Origin: Thermofilaceae archaeon
GTDB lineage: Archaea; Thermoproteota; Thermoprotei; Thermofilales; Thermofilaceae
DNA: 64,000 nucleotides
Reading direction: 5' to 3'
Assembly: GCA_038861545.1 (NCBI GenBank)
Contig: JAWCCZ010000001.1
Location: 256,001-320,000 of the forward strand
Shown: one piece after another, positions 4,077 to 24,851 of the stretch
Layout: the number at the start of each line of letters is the position of its first letter
Position numbering within the stretch: position 1 is the stretch's first letter
Made by a program: the position numbers and the translations under genes
Notes under the pieces: model-generated
The model's database searches: none
What the model was told of the DNA's origin: nothing
What the model saw: only the letters and a program-made list of their open reading frames with translations

Positions 4077-4970
4077 ATGATATTAGATTGGCGGAAAGGT
4101 ATAGTTTTTCTTATAGTAACATTACCTCTCATATTTATGATACTTACACGCTATACTGCTAGTGCTGCAGATCCCCTTAGACAAGCAGAGGAGACTGCAG
4201 AAAATATTAGGGGGGAGACCGGACTAGTGGTTAATGGTCCTTTTAATACTCCTATTTTCTCATTTGAGTTAGTAAACATTTCTAGCTTGGATGAAAAGAT
4301 CTTACAGGGTCCCAGTCTACAAAAGTATAAGCCAGTTTTCGCCGTAAAGGAGAAGCAAAGTTATGATCTATACGTTATACTTTATGATTATTATCATGAT
4401 GAATACTTAATTCTCTATATACACCCTAATGGAAGCCAATTGGTAAAGAAACTATTTTTCACAAAGGTTTCAAGTGAATATATTGAAAAGGAGGGATCGA
4501 GACAAGAGGTTGTTATCAACGACAACAAAAAAGTTACGATAGAGGGACATTTAGCATGCCAGCTTGATAAGTATACAGCAGAGTATGTTTCGCTTCAAAC
4601 ATCCTACATGGATTTTGACTGTTGGTATACTACGAAATTCGGGTCATATAACCTTGTCACCACACATGCTAAAGGACGCGTATTTTATATTCCAGGTCAG
4701 TATGTTACAGGCTTTACAGATAGATCCTATGATGTAATACATGATCCTGGCATTACAGGATGCTGGTTTAAATCGTCTTCATCAGGAGCCGGTTTGCCGC
4801 AAGCAACTTTAAAGGCAGAAGGAAAATACTTGATCTGTTGGAGCCTAATCCCCCTTCCAGTGTCAACTCAATGGAATCAGTTTGCTCGGTTTATCTTTGA
4901 CGCTGTAACAGAGACTCCCGATTGTGAAGGCATGCATAACTCTTGGGTATCATATAATTGTAATTGTTAA
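4077..4970 (+). CDS. Hypothetical secreted protein with Cys-rich C-terminal half
   Basis: 297-aa ORF with hydrophobic N-terminal signal ending ASA-ADP; 7 Cys, ends YNCNC; AT-rich context. Confidence 0.75.
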   Translation: MILDWRKGIVFLIVTLPLIFMILTRYTASAADPLRQAEETAENIRGETGLVVNGPFNTPIFSFELVNISSLDEKILQGPSLQKYKPVFAVKEKQSYDLYVILYDYYHDEYLILYIHPNGSQLVKKLFFTKVSSEYIEKEGSRQEVVINDNKKVTIEGHLACQLDKYTAEYVSLQTSYMDFDCWYTTKFGSYNLVTTHAKGRVFYIPGQYVTGFTDRSYDVIHDPGITGCWFKSSSSGAGLPQATLKAEGKYLICWSLIPLPVSTQWNQFARFIFDAVTETPDCEGMHNSWVSYNCNC

Positions 4971-5060
4971 ATAACATTAAGTTTTGCATTAAAAAGTAGA
5001 AGTTTAAAGTAAATACCTTCTAGCAACAAAATATACTGAAAAGTCATGTTTAGAGAATTC

Positions 5061-6113
5061 TTAGTCAAATACAACTTCAGGAGGGTAAATCCAATTGAGA
5101 TATCTAAGCTGTATGTGTGCTTCATGGATCCAGCCTCTATGTATTAACAGCCTATAGCGGAAGCATATAGGGTCTGTTACTAACAAATCACCAGCTCTAT
5201 GGCCAGTGAATTCAGAGAGACCGAAGACATTAGCTGTCATCAAACCATAATCACGTGCATGCCAATAAGTGGGGTGCCGAGGATTTAAGTAGTGATCGAA
5301 AATAGTCACACCATATATACGGTTAGCAAGGGGGCCACTGTAATCACACCACTCTGCTTTCTTACCCCATACTTCCTTTTCGTTAACTCCGCCCCAGCTA
5401 TTCATTATTTTTCCGCCACTTAATACGTTCATTGAGTTGGCCACCCGTATCGAGACCATTCCAGCCTCCTTCGTATCGCCAAGCATAGTTTCACCCTTTG
5501 GTTTAAGGAGCACATCATAATCAATTAACCATTCCCCGCTAGGTGTGTTCCAGAAGCGTATCCTTCTATCCTCTAGAAGGAAGCACGAACCTTCTGACTC
5601 CCACGAGTTTTCAACAGCTATTTCAGCATACACCGGTCCAGAAATTAAGCGTGTGAAACGCAGGAGTCGTATTCTACCTTCTCCTGCCCAAAAGTCAATT
5701 CCATTTACATTACCATGGGCTGTCCAAAGAGAATGATGGTGAGGATGATCGCTCGGCGAGTTTTCTGTAACACTGGAATTCTTATTTACATTTAATGGAT
5801 AGACGTAAGGAATCCTAACTTCACGGTACCTATAGCTTGCTATATGCTCGAAGCCACGCATAAGTTTAACCTCGCTTCCCGTATCAATAAGCCGGAATTC
5901 CATAATGGGAGGTTCATCTAAAAGTAGGAGTTCTCTGATTTCCCCAGCTCTTAAGTAGGGTATAATGAAGGAAAGCTTACCCTCTAAAACATGAGAGGGG
6001 TAAAGGTACCCGGCCTTATCCCTCAACATGTAAGTTCCATCACTCAGTTCAGTGAAAGTTTCACAGGGGGTTTCTATAGCATCGCGGAATCCTCGGATCT
6101 TCAGCTTCGTCAC
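5061..6113 (-). CDS. DUF6807 / PmoA-like family protein (carbohydrate-associated, function unknown)
   Basis: DHPHHHSLWTAHGNVNGIDFW, WCDYSG, PTYWHARDYGL. Confidence 0.8.
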   Translation of the reverse strand: MTKLKIRGFRDAIETPCETFTELSDGTYMLRDKAGYLYPSHVLEGKLSFIIPYLRAGEIRELLLLDEPPIMEFRLIDTGSEVKLMRGFEHIASYRYREVRIPYVYPLNVNKNSSVTENSPSDHPHHHSLWTAHGNVNGIDFWAGEGRIRLLRFTRLISGPVYAEIAVENSWESEGSCFLLEDRRIRFWNTPSGEWLIDYDVLLKPKGETMLGDTKEAGMVSIRVANSMNVLSGGKIMNSWGGVNEKEVWGKKAEWCDYSGPLANRIYGVTIFDHYLNPRHPTYWHARDYGLMTANVFGLSEFTGHRAGDLLVTDPICFRYRLLIHRGWIHEAHIQLRYLNWIYPPEVVFD

Positions 6114-6121
6114 AGATAGAT

Positions 6122-6133
6122 GAGAAATTTCTC
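6122..6133. promoter_or_regulatory. Palindromic putative operator GAGAAATTTCTC
   Basis: Perfect 12-bp palindrome between a TATA-like element and the start codon of 5061..6113. Confidence 0.35.
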
Positions 6134-6155
6134 TGTGAAAAAGTTAACGAAGATA

Positions 6156-7568
6156 CTATTTTGTTTTAATTCGCATATCAAGTTCAGTGATTATAGGTTT
6201 CGCCCAGTCAGCTAACGCGAGCCAAGCAGCCATCAACACACCTCCAACGATATTACTAAGCATTATGCCTGTCCATACACCTAATGGTCCCCAGTTCATG
6301 GGAAACGCTAGAAGATAAGATATACCAACTCTCACTAACCATAACCTGCCTATGTTGATCACTGTAGCTGCCATTGTACGACCAGCGCCTCTAGCGGCTG
6401 AAAAGCCACACATGAAGAAAGCGAAGAAGGGGAGTCCCAGAAGGATTGTATCTAGAAACTGAAGACTAACATCGGTTACTGTGGGGTTCGAGGTAAAGAT
6501 GTGAACTACAGAGTCTCTGATAAAATACATTACAAGGGATGAGGCGGCTACGATGGAAGCAACGAAGAGCGAACCTTTTAAGGCACTGCTTTTCGCTCGG
6601 GCGAGCTCGCCTGCACCAAGCAGTTGCCCAATAATGATTGCTATCGAGCCTGATAATCCCCACATGGCAGCATCAGCGATGTCCAGAACGATGAAGCCTA
6701 TCGAGTAAGCAGTAGCTACTTCAACACCAAAGGAATTAACAAGCCTCAGTTGTGTCATGAAGGCAGAGCTGTTGAGCATGGACATCACAGCTATGGGACC
6801 TCCAACTTTTGCAACCATCTTAACCCATACCATGTCGAAGTTTCTGGTTAGGTTAGGTTTGATTTCTTTAAAGCGGTAGTTAAAAAGCGTTAAAAGAAGT
6901 ACAAGCGAAATAATAATACCAATTGTGTCTGTCAGTGCAGAACCTATGGGACCCATGCGAGGAAAGGGCCCGATTCCGAGTATAAGAAGAGGGTCTAACA
7001 CTGTATTAACAGCCATGCCGAAGAAGTTTATGAAAGAGGGTAACTTAGTTTCACCAATAGATGAGAGAATTGTAGTTAAAGTCATGGTTACCGCTGAGAG
7101 CAGCATGTTGAACGAAGTGACTGCTGTATACTCCATTACATGGTAATATATCTCCGATGGCGTCGAGACGACATATCTAAAAATCCAAGGTCTTAAAATG
7201 AAAAATGTCATTGACGAAAACATACCAACAAATAGAGCTGCCGTAAAGAATCTTGAAATTTCTTTTTTAACCTCTCCAAACATTTTTGCGCCCATATACT
7301 GTGCAACAACACTTGTTCCAGCAGTGCCAAGTGCATTTAAAAGGGCCATGAAGAAGAATTGAACAGGGAAAACCTGTCGGGGTATAGCTATAGCGTTTTC
7401 ACTGAATAAACTTAGCCAGAGAGAGTTTAAGACATTATAAGATAAACTAATTAACTGAGACAACATAGGGGGTGCTCCCAGCTTTAACAGTGTAGTTATT
7501 AATGACCCCTTAATTACACGGTCTCTATATCCTTCAAGCCTTGTTGCATGCTCCACTTTAACCACCAA
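6156..7568 (-). CDS. MATE family efflux transporter
   Basis: About 12 TM segments; NTVLDPLLILG, GQLLGAG, GPLGVWTG motifs. Confidence 0.93.
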   Translation of the reverse strand: MVVKVEHATRLEGYRDRVIKGSLITTLLKLGAPPMLSQLISLSYNVLNSLWLSLFSENAIAIPRQVFPVQFFFMALLNALGTAGTSVVAQYMGAKMFGEVKKEISRFFTAALFVGMFSSMTFFILRPWIFRYVVSTPSEIYYHVMEYTAVTSFNMLLSAVTMTLTTILSSIGETKLPSFINFFGMAVNTVLDPLLILGIGPFPRMGPIGSALTDTIGIIISLVLLLTLFNYRFKEIKPNLTRNFDMVWVKMVAKVGGPIAVMSMLNSSAFMTQLRLVNSFGVEVATAYSIGFIVLDIADAAMWGLSGSIAIIIGQLLGAGELARAKSSALKGSLFVASIVAASSLVMYFIRDSVVHIFTSNPTVTDVSLQFLDTILLGLPFFAFFMCGFSAARGAGRTMAATVINIGRLWLVRVGISYLLAFPMNWGPLGVWTGIMLSNIVGGVLMAAWLALADWAKPIITELDMRIKTK

Positions 7569-13997: not shown

Positions 13998-14059
13998 TAC
14001 AGTTTAGTTTGTAAACAGTAAATTTTATATTTCTTTTTAAACTTTCAAGCAGGGGCATA

Positions 14060-15253
14060 GTGATCAAATGTTGGAAACTTGCTGTAGCTTTTCTACTATT
14101 TGCAGCATTATCCTACATAGTGTTTACCGCCATACTGCGTGTTTTCTTGTTATCCTTTTCAAAGGAACCCGAAATTCCGCCTCAAGAAGGGATTCAAACC
14201 CCAAGAGCTGGAGACGCTATTGCTATAATGATGGAGTATGGAGCGAATTGTTTTCGTCTTAGGTTGTTTGTCGACCCTAATCCGCGTGATGAGTGGGGCG
14301 GGTTTACCGGTAATAACCTGGAGTATACAGTGAGGTTAGCTAAGAGGATTAAAGCTGCTGAAGCGAAGCTAGTACTCGACCCGCATTACTCGGATACCTG
14401 GGCGGACCCGGGGAAGCAATACACTCCCAAGTCATGGCTGAATTTAGGTTTTGAACAGCTTGTCGATAAGGTTTACGAGTACACGCACGATACCATTACT
14501 GCTTTTAATGATGAGGGAGCTTTACCCGACATGGTGCAGATAGGCAATGAGATAACCTGTGGGTTTTTATGGCCTGAAGGTAAGGTATGTGATGTTGAAA
14601 ACCCTCAAGAGCAGTGGAGTAAGTTTGCCACTCTGCTTAAAGCCGCTATAAAAGGCGTAAAAGACGCTCCTGGAGGGGGTAACATTCAGGTAATTCTACA
14701 TATTCACCCTGGAGGTAGCTGGGAAACTACCGATTGGTTTTTTTCGAACTTGGAGGATCAAGGTGTGCCATACAACATTATCGGTTTAAGTTACTATCCG
14801 ATTTGGCATGGTTCATTAACAGATCTCAAAAAAAATCTTGTGAATACGGCTAATAAATTCAACAAAGAGATTTTCATTGTCGAAACTGGGTACCCCTATC
14901 AACAAATCAACTTTGGTCAGCTAGAAGAAACCGGTTCTCGATACATGACTTGGCCGCGGACGCCCGAAGGGCAGGCCCAGTTCATCACAGATGTTATACA
15001 AGCAGTATATGAAACACCCAATCGAAAAGGCATGGGTGTTCTTTGGTGGTACCCGGAGGCGATTCCAGTTAAAGAGTTAACCGTGTTAAACGCTACAGCG
15101 CTTTTTGATGAAAAAGGCCGAGCTTTACCGGCTTTAAAGGTTTTCAAAGAATTCCGTAAAAGATTGAGTTCGGAGTTCCTGCTTGGTGGCGATATATCTG
15201 CCCTGGGCGAAATCGAAAGATTGGGTGGAGTTTACTTGAGCGGAAGTGGGTAG
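14060..15253 (+). CDS. Membrane-anchored GH53 endo-1,4-beta-galactanase, apparently circularly permuted
   Basis: FRLRLFVDP, HYSDTWADPGKQ, QIGNEI (acid/base), IVETGYP (nucleophile); N-terminal TM; GGDIS segment at the C-terminus. Confidence 0.93.
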   Translation: MIKCWKLAVAFLLFAALSYIVFTAILRVFLLSFSKEPEIPPQEGIQTPRAGDAIAIMMEYGANCFRLRLFVDPNPRDEWGGFTGNNLEYTVRLAKRIKAAEAKLVLDPHYSDTWADPGKQYTPKSWLNLGFEQLVDKVYEYTHDTITAFNDEGALPDMVQIGNEITCGFLWPEGKVCDVENPQEQWSKFATLLKAAIKGVKDAPGGGNIQVILHIHPGGSWETTDWFFSNLEDQGVPYNIIGLSYYPIWHGSLTDLKKNLVNTANKFNKEIFIVETGYPYQQINFGQLEETGSRYMTWPRTPEGQAQFITDVIQAVYETPNRKGMGVLWWYPEAIPVKELTVLNATALFDEKGRALPALKVFKEFRKRLSSEFLLGGDISALGEIERLGGVYLSGSG

Positions 15254-15639
15254 CTTTTTTAGAAGAGGTACTCCGAGTCCTCCTTTATAGATCTAATAGC
15301 ATTTAGAACTGGCACTCGAACAAACCATCCGCATCTCCATGTACAGCTCCTCAAGTACCTGTACTTCACTATGCATAGTTAGCTCGCTAGTTAAGCGCCG
15401 CCTTACGTTTGAGAAGGTTGCAACTCAAAGGTAAACCTACTCGCCGCGCCTTTCAGCAGTCTAAGCTCACTTCTACTCAGGAAAGGCTCAGCAGCATATA
15501 GACTCCAACTCGCGACTCGATTACGCTGACGAGCTAGCCTCTAAAGGGAAAACTCTATCTGCTATAGACGCCGGCTCAGAATTCGGGACAAGGTATTATG
15601 ATATTTTCATATCCCAAGTATCCCAGGTATTACAGTTAT

Positions 15640-16070
15640 GTTCACATCGCTTGTAAAGAATGTATCGAGGATATTGCGAGAGCTTAGAAAGCTAAAGTTG
15701 AACTAAGCTGCAGAACTTAGGCCGAGCTTCTAGAAAAGCCAGTCAGGTCTAGAGGGAGTAGAAGATAAGGTGAGAAAAGCACGGAAAGGTTTCTGAAGTT
15801 AAGAGAGGGGTAACAGCTAAGTGGAGCGGAAAGACTGTACTAGAGGAGTTAGCCAGGCTGCATGAAGCTGAGAGCTCTGACTCTCGCCGCTAAAATCCTT
15901 TGTAACTGTTTTGAAAACTGACGAAAGGTATAATGACAGGCGCGCCGGGGCCTCTGCAAGCTTTCAGGAAGTACATGTATGATCAGCAAAGCCGTACCAT
16001 TTACCTCGCAAGCCGGTGCAGGTAGCACCATTATTATGCCACCAGTCAAGCTGATCAAGGAGGGTTAACT
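15640..16070 (+). pseudogene. Possible decayed antitoxin / PIN-toxin (VapBC-like) remnant
   Basis: Broken frames read ...WSGKTVLEELARLHEAES overlapping MKLRALTL..., later IYLAS; many stops and frameshifts. Confidence 0.3.
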
Positions 16071-16312
16071 TTCTATTACTGTCGTGCATTTCATAGATTC
16101 GCTACGCGATGGTTGGCGACCCGAAGTGGGCGGATAGCTCTCCCAGACGTACTACCCATAAAGGGTATACGTACATGCAGGAAGAATTCTTTCCACCTAA
16201 TGACACCACTGTTTTTCACCGGTTCTACAACGTTTTCTACTACTGTGGTGAGCGCAGACGCTAGGAAAGTACACCGTGACAGTAATATAGATGGGTTTAC
16301 ATTATTGATCTT

Positions 16313-17116
16313 GTGAACTCCGGCAAAAGGGTTAGGTTAGCTAGAATTTTTAGGAGAGGTAGAGCATTGATCCTAGCGATAGACCATGGTTTGAAGGTGG
16401 GTCCACTTAGGGGGATTGAAAACCCAAGGAAGGTAGCTGAATTAGCAGTTGCAGAGGAAGTAGACGCGATAATGGCAACTCCTCCTATTATCGAATATAT
16501 ATCGGACTTTCTATCAGACCTCTATGCTATCGCACGGGTCGACGGCGGAGCGACGTCAATAGGTCCCAATATCACCAATGATATCACTTTATTTACAATT
16601 GAGGAGGCTATCAATGTAGGGGCAGATGCGGTTGTCGCTTTTGGTTACATGGGTATAGAAAAGGAGAGTGTGCAAATTAAGAAACTTTCGCAGGTAGCTA
16701 GCGAATGCAAAAGATTAGGTATACCTCTAATCGCTGAGATGCTACCAGTAGACCTAGTTAAACACCATTTCTCAGGAGGAGATCGTAACTTGAACCCGGA
16801 GAGCATAGCACTGGCTGCTCGAGTTGGATGGGAAGTAGGTGCCGATGCTGTAAAAACATACTACACAGGCGACCCTGAAACTTTTAAACGGGTTGTCAAT
16901 TCATGCCCGATACCGATACTAGTATTGGGAGGGCCTCCAGTTGAGGATTTCGTTGCTTTTCTGGAACAGATCGAAAGTGCCCTTAAAACTGGTGCACAAG
17001 GGGTAATTGTAGGTCGGAATATTTGGCAACATCCGACTCCCAGGCAAGCCCTCAAAGCTCTCAGTAAAGTTGTACACGAGGGTTGCATCGCCAAGGAGGC
17101 TGTAGGGAAAGCATAA
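16313..17116 (+). CDS. DhnA-type class I aldolase (FBP aldolase / ADH synthase family)
   Basis: AIDHG, GADAVKTYY Schiff-base Lys, IVGRNIWQ. Confidence 0.9.
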   Translation: MNSGKRVRLARIFRRGRALILAIDHGLKVGPLRGIENPRKVAELAVAEEVDAIMATPPIIEYISDFLSDLYAIARVDGGATSIGPNITNDITLFTIEEAINVGADAVVAFGYMGIEKESVQIKKLSQVASECKRLGIPLIAEMLPVDLVKHHFSGGDRNLNPESIALAARVGWEVGADAVKTYYTGDPETFKRVVNSCPIPILVLGGPPVEDFVAFLEQIESALKTGAQGVIVGRNIWQHPTPRQALKALSKVVHEGCIAKEAVGKA

Positions 17117-17269
17117 AATACTTTTCCCTATGCAAGGTTGCCATTATTCAATGCAGTACTAATTGATTGCCTAGGGCAAAAGCATTTTTAGTAATTGATC
17201 TACCTCATAATACACTTATATCAACGCTATTCTTAAAGTTGAGCTAGGGTTTGGTCTTAGCGATACGCT

Positions 17270-19414
17270 ATGGTCTTATCGAAAGAGTTCGTTAGCAAAC
17301 TTCTCGATTTACAAAGACCTGAAGAGCTAATGCTTCCGATAGAACCCAGAGTAGATCATGCTGATCACATGGTAAAAACCGCTTTACTTGGCTGGAGTGA
17401 GCTGGCCGCTGATCATATATTACATTTCGAGGTTAGTGACAAGCTTCCTGCGCTGATATCTTCTCTAGTTAGGAAGTCAGAGATCTTACTCAGGACGCAC
17501 ACCATAGCAGATGCTCAGGAGGAGGTCCTTAGGGATCGTGTTGCCTGTAGGGTCAGAATCTATGACATGTTAATTGAAACAGCATTAAACTTAGCTGGCT
17601 GTGAGTCTGATTGGGCTTACCTTGAACCTTTATTTGTTGACAAAGCTTTGAGCAACATAGTAGGTGCATTTAAGGAATGGGAAAAGCTCGAGGAGCGTGA
17701 ATTAGGAGGAATCTTTGTTTTAGAGACAGTAGTTGAACGCAAGCTTAGAAAGATGGAGAAAGTGAACAAGGGTAATAGCCTCGTTGCAGCTATAGCTAAG
17801 CTGGTGCGTGAGCGATTAGAGCCAGGCAATTTAGCAGCAAGCTTTATAGAGTCCATGGCTGAGTGCATTCGAGGTAGCTTTTATCGACGTGCATACGAGC
17901 AAGGTTTATGCAAGTTTGGCAACGACTATGCATTAGGCCTCCGTTTCCTTAGACATCTCGGTTTCGTTCAAGTGTCGACAAACCCATTGCTTGCTGCACG
18001 TGCTTACGACGATGAACCTGAGCTTTGGCGAGGTTTCGAGGAGTATACTCGTAGAGTACTAGTTGTAGAACATCCAGAATGGTTTAATGATCCAGAAAAC
18101 CACTTGGATGAGTTAGCGATGGAGGCGACTAGATATGCTCTAATGGATAACTTTTACGTGTTCCGAGTCCCCTTTATACTCTCAGGTTATCATGACGGGT
18201 TAGTCAGCTATCAGCTGAATCCGTTGATAGCTCACGACGCTGAAAGAAGCGTTGAAGCCGTAAAGGTCTTTGCTAACCGCCTTGAAAGGGATTTGAAGGT
18301 GTACGACGAGTATCTATGGTGGGGATATAACGTATCTGAAAAAGGTAGACCCAACCTGGTAGTAAAGGTAGCAGCTGCTTATCCCGCGGCAATAGAAATA
18401 GTAGAAAAAATTAACGAAATGGGTATAGGGCAGAACATTACTCTAAGCTACACGGTTAGTCAAGAGGTGCTTTTAGGTGTCTCGGCGCTAAAGGGGATGG
18501 GCAAGGCCATTAGTAAAGGCCTGTTACCCACTCAGACTTATAACACCAATATGTCCGGCAGGCTGGAAGATCACCTTAGGGAAGTTGCAGCAACCGACTT
18601 GCTACTGAAAGGGCTAGCTCAACTAAGTTGGGAGGAGCGCTGGGCTATACTTGACGAACTTGCTTCAAAACTGGGGGTAAAGCCTGAGGAGTGGAGTAAT
18701 GCGAAAAGCCAGGGTATAAAAACCGCCGTCGAATTTCTATGCAGCACTAGAGTGCTGGGCAGAAACATGACAGACGCTCGATTTCTCCAAGCACTCGCAA
18801 AAACTAATGTTTTTGCGTCAGAAGAAAATATGGTAAGACAGGTCTCAGAGTTAGAAGAAGCGATTAAATTGTCGGGAACTCTTATAGCAAAGCGGGTTTA
18901 CGAGATCTTTTTTGCTCCATGGAATCGAAGTAGATGGATAGAGTACCTTGTTAAGGAAGTAGGCATTGATGAAGAGGATGCAGAGATAGTCTTAGATAGA
19001 CTGGATCTCCTGCCAGCTTCAAAAAGGAAACCGGCTGATACGCTACTCACCTTTTCCTCAAGAAATGTAACCAATACCGAGTTCCCTGATCATCAGTTAA
19101 ACGTTGAAAGAGTTGCTAAGGATATTCGGTTTGATGATATTTGTGAATCTATATTGAAACCGGTAGAGGAAAGGCACATCGGTTTACTGCGTAAAATTCC
19201 GGATTTCGTGAGGGCTTATGAGGCTTCGCCCGAAGTTAATGAATTGCTACACAAAGTTGGCATAAAAGGTGATTATGGTAGCAATGGTATAAGTCCTGCT
19301 GATTGGCCATCATACGGTCCCTGCTTGAAGACCCTGAATGAATTCACCTACGCCTATACATCGTTTAGGTGGAGAGTGGCCCAGTTAGCTAAAAGTATAG
19401 GTAAGAGTGGCTGA
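17270..19414 (+). CDS. Very long transaldolase-family protein
   Basis: GNDYA, VSTNP, NLVVKVAA (Schiff-base Lys), NITLSYTVSQ, SGRLEDH; about 210-aa N-terminal extension. Confidence 0.8.
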   Translation: MVLSKEFVSKLLDLQRPEELMLPIEPRVDHADHMVKTALLGWSELAADHILHFEVSDKLPALISSLVRKSEILLRTHTIADAQEEVLRDRVACRVRIYDMLIETALNLAGCESDWAYLEPLFVDKALSNIVGAFKEWEKLEERELGGIFVLETVVERKLRKMEKVNKGNSLVAAIAKLVRERLEPGNLAASFIESMAECIRGSFYRRAYEQGLCKFGNDYALGLRFLRHLGFVQVSTNPLLAARAYDDEPELWRGFEEYTRRVLVVEHPEWFNDPENHLDELAMEATRYALMDNFYVFRVPFILSGYHDGLVSYQLNPLIAHDAERSVEAVKVFANRLERDLKVYDEYLWWGYNVSEKGRPNLVVKVAAAYPAAIEIVEKINEMGIGQNITLSYTVSQEVLLGVSALKGMGKAISKGLLPTQTYNTNMSGRLEDHLREVAATDLLLKGLAQLSWEERWAILDELASKLGVKPEEWSNAKSQGIKTAVEFLCSTRVLGRNMTDARFLQALAKTNVFASEENMVRQVSELEEAIKLSGTLIAKRVYEIFFAPWNRSRWIEYLVKEVGIDEEDAEIVLDRLDLLPASKRKPADTLLTFSSRNVTNTEFPDHQLNVERVAKDIRFDDICESILKPVEERHIGLLRKIPDFVRAYEASPEVNELLHKVGIKGDYGSNGISPADWPSYGPCLKTLNEFTYAYTSFRWRVAQLAKSIGKSG

Positions 19415-24742: not shown

Positions 24743-24851
24743 GGGCCGGTAGATCAGACTGGGAGATCGTCCGCTTGGCATGCGGGAGATCCTCTCGAGA
24801 AAGCCTCGAGAGAACCCGATGCCCCGGGTTCAAGTCCCGGCCGGTCCACCA
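24743..24851 (+). tRNA. tRNA-Ala(GGC) with 32-nt intron at 45/46 (24789-24820); CCA encoded
   Basis: Acceptor GGGCCGG/CCGGTCC with G3.U70; D stem GATC/GATC; anticodon arm TCCGC-TTGGCAT-GCGGG; T arm CCGGG-TTCAAGT-CCCGG; intron removal restores variable loop AGGCC. Confidence 0.95.

Follow-up and report, generated by a model that had tools for sequence, protein, structure and literature searches.

A naturally circularly permuted GH53 barrel in Thermofilaceae archaea with its first strand at the C-terminus

In this work we describe a protein of glycoside hydrolase family GH53, encoded in the genome of a Thermofilaceae archaeon, in which the first strand of the (beta/alpha)8 barrel has moved from the N-terminus of the domain to the extreme C-terminus of the chain. 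The window is the whole stretch of DNA that was analysed (64,000 nt of contig JAWCCZ010000001.1), and the window protein is the product of the open reading frame at 14060-15253 on its forward strand, to which all window coordinates below refer. A sequence-only reading of this DNA had proposed a natural circular permutation. We find the proposal well founded: alignments in swapped order, a rotation test, a predicted C-terminal barrel strand, conservation across a clade and purifying selection all agree with it. Taking the parts together, we are fairly confident that this is a functional permuted GH53 enzyme, one that is probably anchored in the membrane, closes its barrel in one chain and is derived by duplication.

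Results

The gene and its parts

The reading frame at 14060-15253 has a GTG start and runs uninterrupted for 397 amino acids plus stop, with zero frameshifts or internal stops. From the frame and its Pfam match we annotate the whole as a permuted gene for a predicted GH53 endo-beta-1,4-galactanase. Record P0002 is a 397-aa protein identical to the window protein, which was also the sole GH53 match in a profile search of the window genome. About 30 nt upstream of the GTG lies the AT-rich, TATA-like box aaattttatatttc (14020-14033), a putative archaeal promoter judging from its letters.

The protein starts with a hydrophobic helix (residues 1-34, 14060-14161), a signal-anchor or uncleaved signal that AlphaFold2 (AF2) models as a helix over residues 2-34. 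Homologous hydrophobic N-termini are found in relatives, and the helix of the window protein probably inserts in the membrane. It is followed by a Pro/Glu-rich linker (residues 35-48, 14162-14203), predicted to be flexible from a pLDDT below 50 at residues 34-47. Across the permuted clade the linker between anchor and core varies from 7 to about 30 residues. A weak BLAST extension raised the idea that residues 29-48 are a decayed old beta1, which we rejected, since in basal members no more than 7-12 residues separate the anchor from alpha1.

The GH53 domain begins at GDAIAIMMEYGANCFRLR, C-terminal to the helix and the linker. Its core, which runs from alpha1 to alpha8 and comprises canonical beta2-beta8 with their helices, covers residues 49-368 (14204-15163) according to Pfam (50-362), AF2 and the structural aligner VIA-align. 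In the solved canonical enzyme 7OSK the catalytic residues are Glu165 as acid/base and Glu266 as nucleophile (PMC8447715). The predicted acid/base of the window protein is E164 in the GNE motif on canonical beta4 (14549-14551), which aligns with the GNE of 7OSK, and the predicted nucleophile is E275 in the VETG motif on canonical beta7 (14882-14884), which aligns with the region of Glu266. Both glutamates, in the contexts QIGNEI and IVETGY, are invariant in the 21-sequence permuted alignment and in the 67-sequence alignment. Towards the end of the core, LFDEKGRALPALKVF (residues 348-362) is followed by ten residues and then by FLLGGDISALGEIERLGGVY (residues 373-392). A short connector (residues 369-372, 15164-15175), modelled as coil with a pLDDT of 97-98, joins the end of alpha8 to the relocated beta1 module. 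This module spans residues 373-397 plus stop (15176-15253, the codon of F373 being 15176-15178) and consists of a strand, a short helix and the first hairpin strand, as assigned by BLAST, profile and AF2. The sequence-only reading had already placed the start of the domain at GDAIAIMMEYGANCFRLR after a TM anchor and a Pro-rich linker, and had called both catalytic Glu intact and the frame free of frameshifts; these observations stand.

The missing first element lies at the C-terminus

Pfam family PF07745 (Glyco_hydro_53) matches residues 50-362 on profile positions 26-340 of 340 with 304.1 bits, against a cut-off of 24. As the match starts at position 26, nothing at the N-terminus corresponds to the first 25 positions of the profile. 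The missing first element had been claimed to appear in frame at the C-terminus from 15176, and several comparisons place it there. BLASTP against the canonical protein P0034, which comes from a Nitrososphaerota archaeon MAG, returns two segments in swapped order. The core segment aligns query residues 49-366 with P0034 residues 55-374 at 53% identity, and the tail segment aligns query residues 373-392 with P0034 residues 35-54 (14/20 identical, 70%, E 5e-6). The match of the tail is closer still to the N-terminal beta1 of the planctomycete GH53 P0030, with 17 of 21 residues identical (E 4e-10).

A custom profile built from 46 canonical single-domain relatives gives the same result. The tail matches its positions 23-48 with 23.6 bits (E 4e-9), and the native window protein yields two matches, h52-365 and then h24-48. 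When the sequence is rotated, so that residues 363-397 precede residues 48-362, a single continuous match over h24-362 is obtained with 510.5 bits. The window protein without its tail scores 478.6 bits, so the rotated tail gains 32 bits. On these alignments, the tail resembles beta1 far more than chance would allow. A Pfam scan of the 35-residue tail alone gave no family, even at E values up to 10. The general Pfam model is thus blind to the tail, and the evidence that the tail is beta1 comes from close relatives, where it is unambiguous.

Predicted structure

For structure prediction AF2 was given the 67-sequence alignment of 21 permuted and 46 canonical proteins, in which the tail columns are backed by 21 sequences. 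The model has a mean pLDDT of 92.3 and a pTM of 0.85. After the N-terminal helix and a disordered stretch at residues 34-47, alpha1 is found at residues 53-59, and the core supplies seven strands (64-70, 103-109, 158-160, 210-215, 240-245, 270-276 and 324-329). At the C-terminus alpha8 (357-368) is followed by a strand at residues 374-378 with a pLDDT of about 98 and by a helix at 382-387, the tail as a whole having a pLDDT of 95-98. Only when the C-terminal strand is counted does the model have eight barrel strands. Strand assignment and pLDDT speak indirectly for its place in the barrel.

Foldseek matches the model to solved GH53 structures with an E value of 9.6e-29 and, like the structural aligner VIA-align, ranks these structures first. 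VIA-align superposes model residues 49-367 on residues 75-396 of the 7OSK chain (Z 38.8, rmsd 2.0 A, 306 aligned), and its ranks 1-10 are all GH53 entries, with other clan GH-A folds at Z of about 21-22. Model residues 368-397 and the first ~74 residues of the 7OSK chain are left unaligned, as would be expected of a sequential aligner that is given a permutant. 7OSK is IaGal of Ignisphaera aggregans, 1R8L/1UR0 is BlGal of Bacillus licheniformis, and 1HJS and 1FHL are fungal GH53 enzymes. Ten distinct solved GH53 sequences were matched in a PDB search, and all ten are in canonical order.

All permuted members except the basal P0019 and P0022 carry a 4-residue insertion in the beta2-alpha2 loop, in the EWGGFTG region of the window protein (residues 73-79, 14276-14296). 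In the AF2 model isolated beta-bridges occur at residues 76, 82 and 393, and therefore the insert may pair with the shortened C-terminal hairpin strand. The insertion postdates the permutation, the basal pair being without it. A similar insert is present in canonical 7OSK.

Occurrence in relatives and selection on the tail

Homologues with the same order were suggested as a check on the permutation, and such homologues were found. Among the best 120 clusters at 90% identity, the order of anchor, core and beta1 tail recurs in 20 further clusters, which bear the NCBI and JGI names Thermofilum, Thermofilaceae, Infirmifilum and Bathyarchaeia; the remaining clusters are canonical, tandem two-barrel or unclassified. 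These permuted relatives are 51-74% identical to the window protein and come from different studies and assemblers. In the taxonomic order of the window, 5 of 41 genomes have a GH53 protein; it is permuted in all five, and none of the five has a canonical GH53. In the clusters and genomes examined, no member of the permuted clade is without the tail.

In the sets that we searched, the permuted form appears to be confined to this clade, which comes from a small group of heat-loving archaea. In a 50% clustering with 1.84 billion representatives the entire permuted clade collapses to one representative, P0003. No other permuted form was found in the best 150 of the 50%-identity representatives beyond P0003 and the fragments P0125 and P0149, and none outside the clade among 115 longer proteins.

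Six tail residues (G376, D378, S380, L382, E386 and G389) are invariant in the 21-sequence alignment. In a codon comparison of six genes pN/pS is 0.18-0.44 for the tail and 0.18-0.42 for the core, with the synonymous sites of the tail saturated (pS 0.5-0.87). The tail is under purifying selection equal to that on the core.

Phylogeny and cut site

A maximum likelihood tree was built from the core alone, with the tail columns left out, and included 22 permuted sequences. All 22 form one clade with support of 96/85. Its sister is a group of seven canonical proteins (100/100), and the pair, jointly supported at 98/96, is nested among canonical GH53s. The sister proteins are also anchored at the N-terminus, with a TM helix and a basic amphipathic helix preceding beta1. 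As the permuted clade is single and nested within canonical GH53s, the tree indicates a single origin of the permutation, in an ancestor that also gave rise to canonical archaeal GH53s with an N-terminal anchor.

The cut site is immediately N-terminal of alpha1, and the moved piece is more than strand 1: it comprises beta1, a short helix and the beta-hairpin of the first beta/alpha loop. Basal permuted members end in ...GGVFRDDGDP, which holds the entire first beta/alpha-loop hairpin, and start with ...M-DAIRIM. In Thermofilaceae members the hairpin is shortened and its second strand is trimmed. In another lineage the same site tolerates an insertion of about 150 residues, since in the metagenomic protein P0192 (763 aa) the beta1 module at 185-214 is split from alpha1 at residue 369 by an inserted copy of a repeated N-terminal domain.

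Tandem copies and possible recombination

At a locus of Thermofilaceae SKYB99 that is syntenic with the window (L001), two permuted GH53 genes stand in tandem, copy a at 4664-5923 and copy b at 5947-7047. Copy a has an anchor; copy b has none and is 74% identical to the window protein. The last 76 nt of the two copies, exactly the beta1 module, are 100% identical, and the cores have ~55% protein identity and differ at 59% of synonymous sites. We read this as a sign of gene conversion or recombination that was limited to the moved module. When the tail of copy a is read on into the core of copy b, the canonical order is obtained, broken by a stop and a short spacer.

The window protein is closer to lineage a (P0004 and the genus-mate G020) over residues 1-105 (14060-14375), and the remainder, starting at about residue 106 (14376-15253), is closer to lineage b (SKYB99 copy b). 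This pattern suggests that the window gene is an a/b recombinant, formed by a deletion between tandem a and b copies.

GH53-GH53 fusions with two barrels occur frequently in Bacteroidota and Sedimentisphaerales. Many of the proteins P0054-P0119 and P0271-P0278 from these groups are 650-750 aa long and have two complete GH53 barrels in tandem. The first and the second barrels of such proteins form separate clades in the tree, which points to one old fusion.

Substrate loop and genome context

In IaGal the beta8-alpha8 loop carries a Trp of subsite -3 (PMC8447715). Lineage b, that is the window gene and SKYB99 copy b, has lost the near-invariant Trp-Gly of this loop: at 15076-15100 of the window (residues ~340-347) lineage b reads LTVLNATALFD, versus LTVWNGGATALFD in nearly all relatives. 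The loss could alter or weaken substrate binding and, as it lies in the subsite -3 loop, the product profile may differ.

The immediate neighbours of the gene encode a PadR regulator, a xylose-isomerase-like barrel, a DhnA-type aldolase and a 714-aa transaldolase-like protein, and do not form a galactan-utilisation cluster. Elsewhere in the genome there is a weak GH42-like candidate for a beta-galactosidase; GH1 was not found in the genome. The DeoC/DhnA-type aldolase (267 aa) and the following 714-aa protein, which has a weak, partial transaldolase match, lie at 16313-19414, and both genes are conserved in L001 at a syntenic position. Between the GH53 stop and the aldolase, about 1 kb (15254-16265) is without any ORF of at least 70 aa. 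Within the genome this stretch occurs only once and does not belong to a repeat. It is an insertion, absent from G020 and L001, where the equivalent gap is ~100-140 bp. It has no Rfam match and no similarity to L001 proteins, and a search with tblastn led us to reject the idea that it is a decayed second GH53 copy. Further along the window, Rfam finds a tRNA across 106 nt (24743-24848) that ARAGORN missed, probably an intron-bearing archaeal tRNA.

Discussion

How the permutation arose

A model of permutation by duplication has been described (PMC3320104), and we consider tandem duplication the most likely route here. After such a duplication, the first beta1 module would have been lost, together with all that follows the second one. 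The tandem copies in L001, whose identical 76-nt beta1 modules fit such an origin, and the bacterial two-barrel fusions show that duplication intermediates are accessible in the GH53 family, which favours this route. A fused two-barrel intermediate was not found in the archaeal clade among the 115 longer proteins.

Of the other explanations, the one that survives best leaves fold and function as they are and concerns the route only. In a fission and fusion scenario, a gene for a beta1 peptide and a gene for the core would have been rejoined in reverse order. It is a recognised alternative (PMC3320104), and the L001 order of tail a, stop and core b does resemble a split canonical gene. However, neither a free-standing beta1 gene nor a beta1-less core with a partner was seen in searches that covered all but the 'shorter' length class, whereas tandem copies and two-barrel fusions are both present in the family. 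We therefore regard fission and fusion as possible, though rather unlikely, and tandem duplication as the better account.

Is the barrel closed in one chain?

In the mechanism that we propose, the N-terminal hydrophobic helix would tether the enzyme to the outside of the archaeal membrane and the flexible linker would run directly into alpha1. The chain would then continue through canonical beta2 to alpha8, and the four-residue connector would lead to the C-terminal beta1 module, which would insert between beta2 and beta8 and close the eight-stranded barrel, presumably within one chain as in the model. A different possibility is that, in a domain-swapped dimer or oligomer, the C-terminal beta1 completes a neighbouring subunit's barrel, and in L001 the tail of one paralog might even complement the other. 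Permutants that are cut in a loop are prone to swapping, and L001 copy b, which is without an anchor, directly follows copy a and has an identical tail. Against this, AF2, run on the monomer, models the short connector between alpha8 and beta1 confidently within a single chain. Moreover, in a TIM barrel the end of alpha8 adjoins the start of beta1, and closure in cis should therefore be unstrained. For these reasons a domain swap seems improbable to us.

A further alternative is that the tail has no function. It could be a remnant of a lost downstream tandem copy, in which case the protein would be a seven-stranded, inactive or differently folded GH53 relic. A downstream tandem copy is indeed present in L001, Pfam misses the tail on its own, and the window lineage is without a conserved Trp. 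But 6 of the 20 tail residues are invariant among clade members that are 51-74% identical to the window protein, all clade members examined keep the tail, its pN/pS equals that of the core at saturated synonymous sites, and AF2 gives its strand a pLDDT of 98. A relic of this kind is very unlikely. Least of all do we expect an assembly or annotation artefact, with a misjoin, a frameshift or a collapsed tandem repeat mimicking a permutation: the window locus is known from one assembly and tandem GH53 copies with identical 76-nt segments, as in L001, are repeats that can mislead assemblers, but the same order recurs in over 20 independent sequences, which are 51-74% identical and stem from separate studies and assemblers, the reading frame is continuous, and synteny with L001 and G020 is kept on both sides.

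The predicted active site is unchanged, with E164 as acid/base, E275 as nucleophile and the conserved Trp and Arg residues in place. The enzyme would thus be expected to cut pectic beta-1,4-galactan through the double displacement that is usual for retaining enzymes, and by homology it is probably a retaining endo-beta-1,4-galactanase with extracellular pectic galactan as its substrate.

What the permutation may do to the tether

A TIM barrel has the start of beta1 on the side away from the active site and the start of alpha1 on the catalytic side. It follows from this topology that the permutation carries the tether from the bottom of the barrel, where beta1 starts, to the rim of the catalytic face, where alpha1 starts. 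We can speak of a relocation because the canonical sister clade is also N-terminally anchored, and in this topological sense the earlier claim that the permutation puts the membrane tether at a new point on the barrel is true. Whether the move of the tether is the function of the permutation, or the selective reason for it, is a further step, and we put it forward as a putative explanation.

A bolder reading is that the permutation is adaptive, turning the substrate groove towards the cell, and that the Thermofilaceae locus is a living example of permutation by duplication. The living-example part draws on the tandem a and b copies, their identical 76-nt beta1 module and the apparent a/b recombinant in the window genome. 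We regard this combined reading as speculative and on balance doubtful. If it were true, the anchor at the catalytic rim, with linkers down to 7 residues in basal members, would make the groove face the cell surface, and galacto-oligosaccharides would be freed beside uptake systems. The beta1 module would be a recombination cassette common to neighbouring barrels.

Significance

Both chain orders exist within one family at more than 50% identity, together with a canonical sister, a single origin, tandem paralogs and two-barrel fusions. As both orders coexist in one family, the route, the cost or the benefit of a permutation can be addressed directly by a simple assay of a thermostable enzyme. 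The cut site, in beta/alpha loop 1 immediately before alpha1, is permissive and may be useful for engineering clan GH-A barrels. For permuted proteins an annotation such as 'GH53, N-terminally truncated' is misleading. A paper from 2021 lists Ignisphaera and Desulfurococcus as the only archaeal hosts of GH53 (PMC8447715), so that the Thermofilaceae and Bathyarchaeia enzymes widen the archaeal range. A full-text search of the literature found no report of a permuted GH53.

Comparison with known systems

The window protein belongs to the same Pfam family as the canonical GH53 enzymes, such as IaGal (7OSK), BlGal and the fungal enzymes, and has the same predicted (beta/alpha)8 fold. Shared, too, are the two catalytic Glu, the acid/base on beta4 and the nucleophile on beta7, as well as the Trp of HYSDxWADP, and the core of the window protein is 37% identical to 7OSK and 53% identical to canonical relatives. 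The difference lies in where the chain begins and ends: the window chain starts at alpha1 and ends with beta1 and the hairpin of the first beta/alpha loop. Its beta8-alpha8 loop is also shorter than in the canonical enzymes, and is without the Trp in the window lineage.

The nearest proteins on the tree are those of the canonical sister (P0021, P0024, P0025, P0027, P0032, P0034 and P0035), at ~50-53% identity. As in the permuted clade, a hydrophobic anchor lies at the N-terminus and the one catalytic domain has a similar size. In the sister the order is TM helix, amphipathic helix, beta1 and core, whereas permuted proteins have neither the N-terminal helix nor beta1 in that place, beta1 coming after alpha8.

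To our knowledge natural circular permutations of TIM-barrel enzymes are rare, and the known examples separate distant families (GH70 and GH13). The best-known precedent among glycoside hydrolases is that of the GH70 glucansucrases, which are described as having a circularly permuted (beta/alpha)8 barrel relative to the GH13 alpha-amylases (MacGregor et al. 1996, as cited in PMC6274110). As in the permuted GH53 proteins, a glycoside-hydrolase TIM barrel has been naturally permuted there with its catalytic residues kept. The GH70/GH13 pair, however, belongs to clan GH-H, consists of two families of low identity and is cut elsewhere in the barrel, whereas the GH53 permutation lies within one family of clan GH-A, at more than 50% identity, with the cut in beta/alpha loop 1. 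Saposin/swaposin and the DNA methyltransferases are examples of permutation by duplication (PMC3320104). Their folds and functions differ from those of GH53, but the proposed route is the same, namely a tandem duplication followed by a new start and a new stop.
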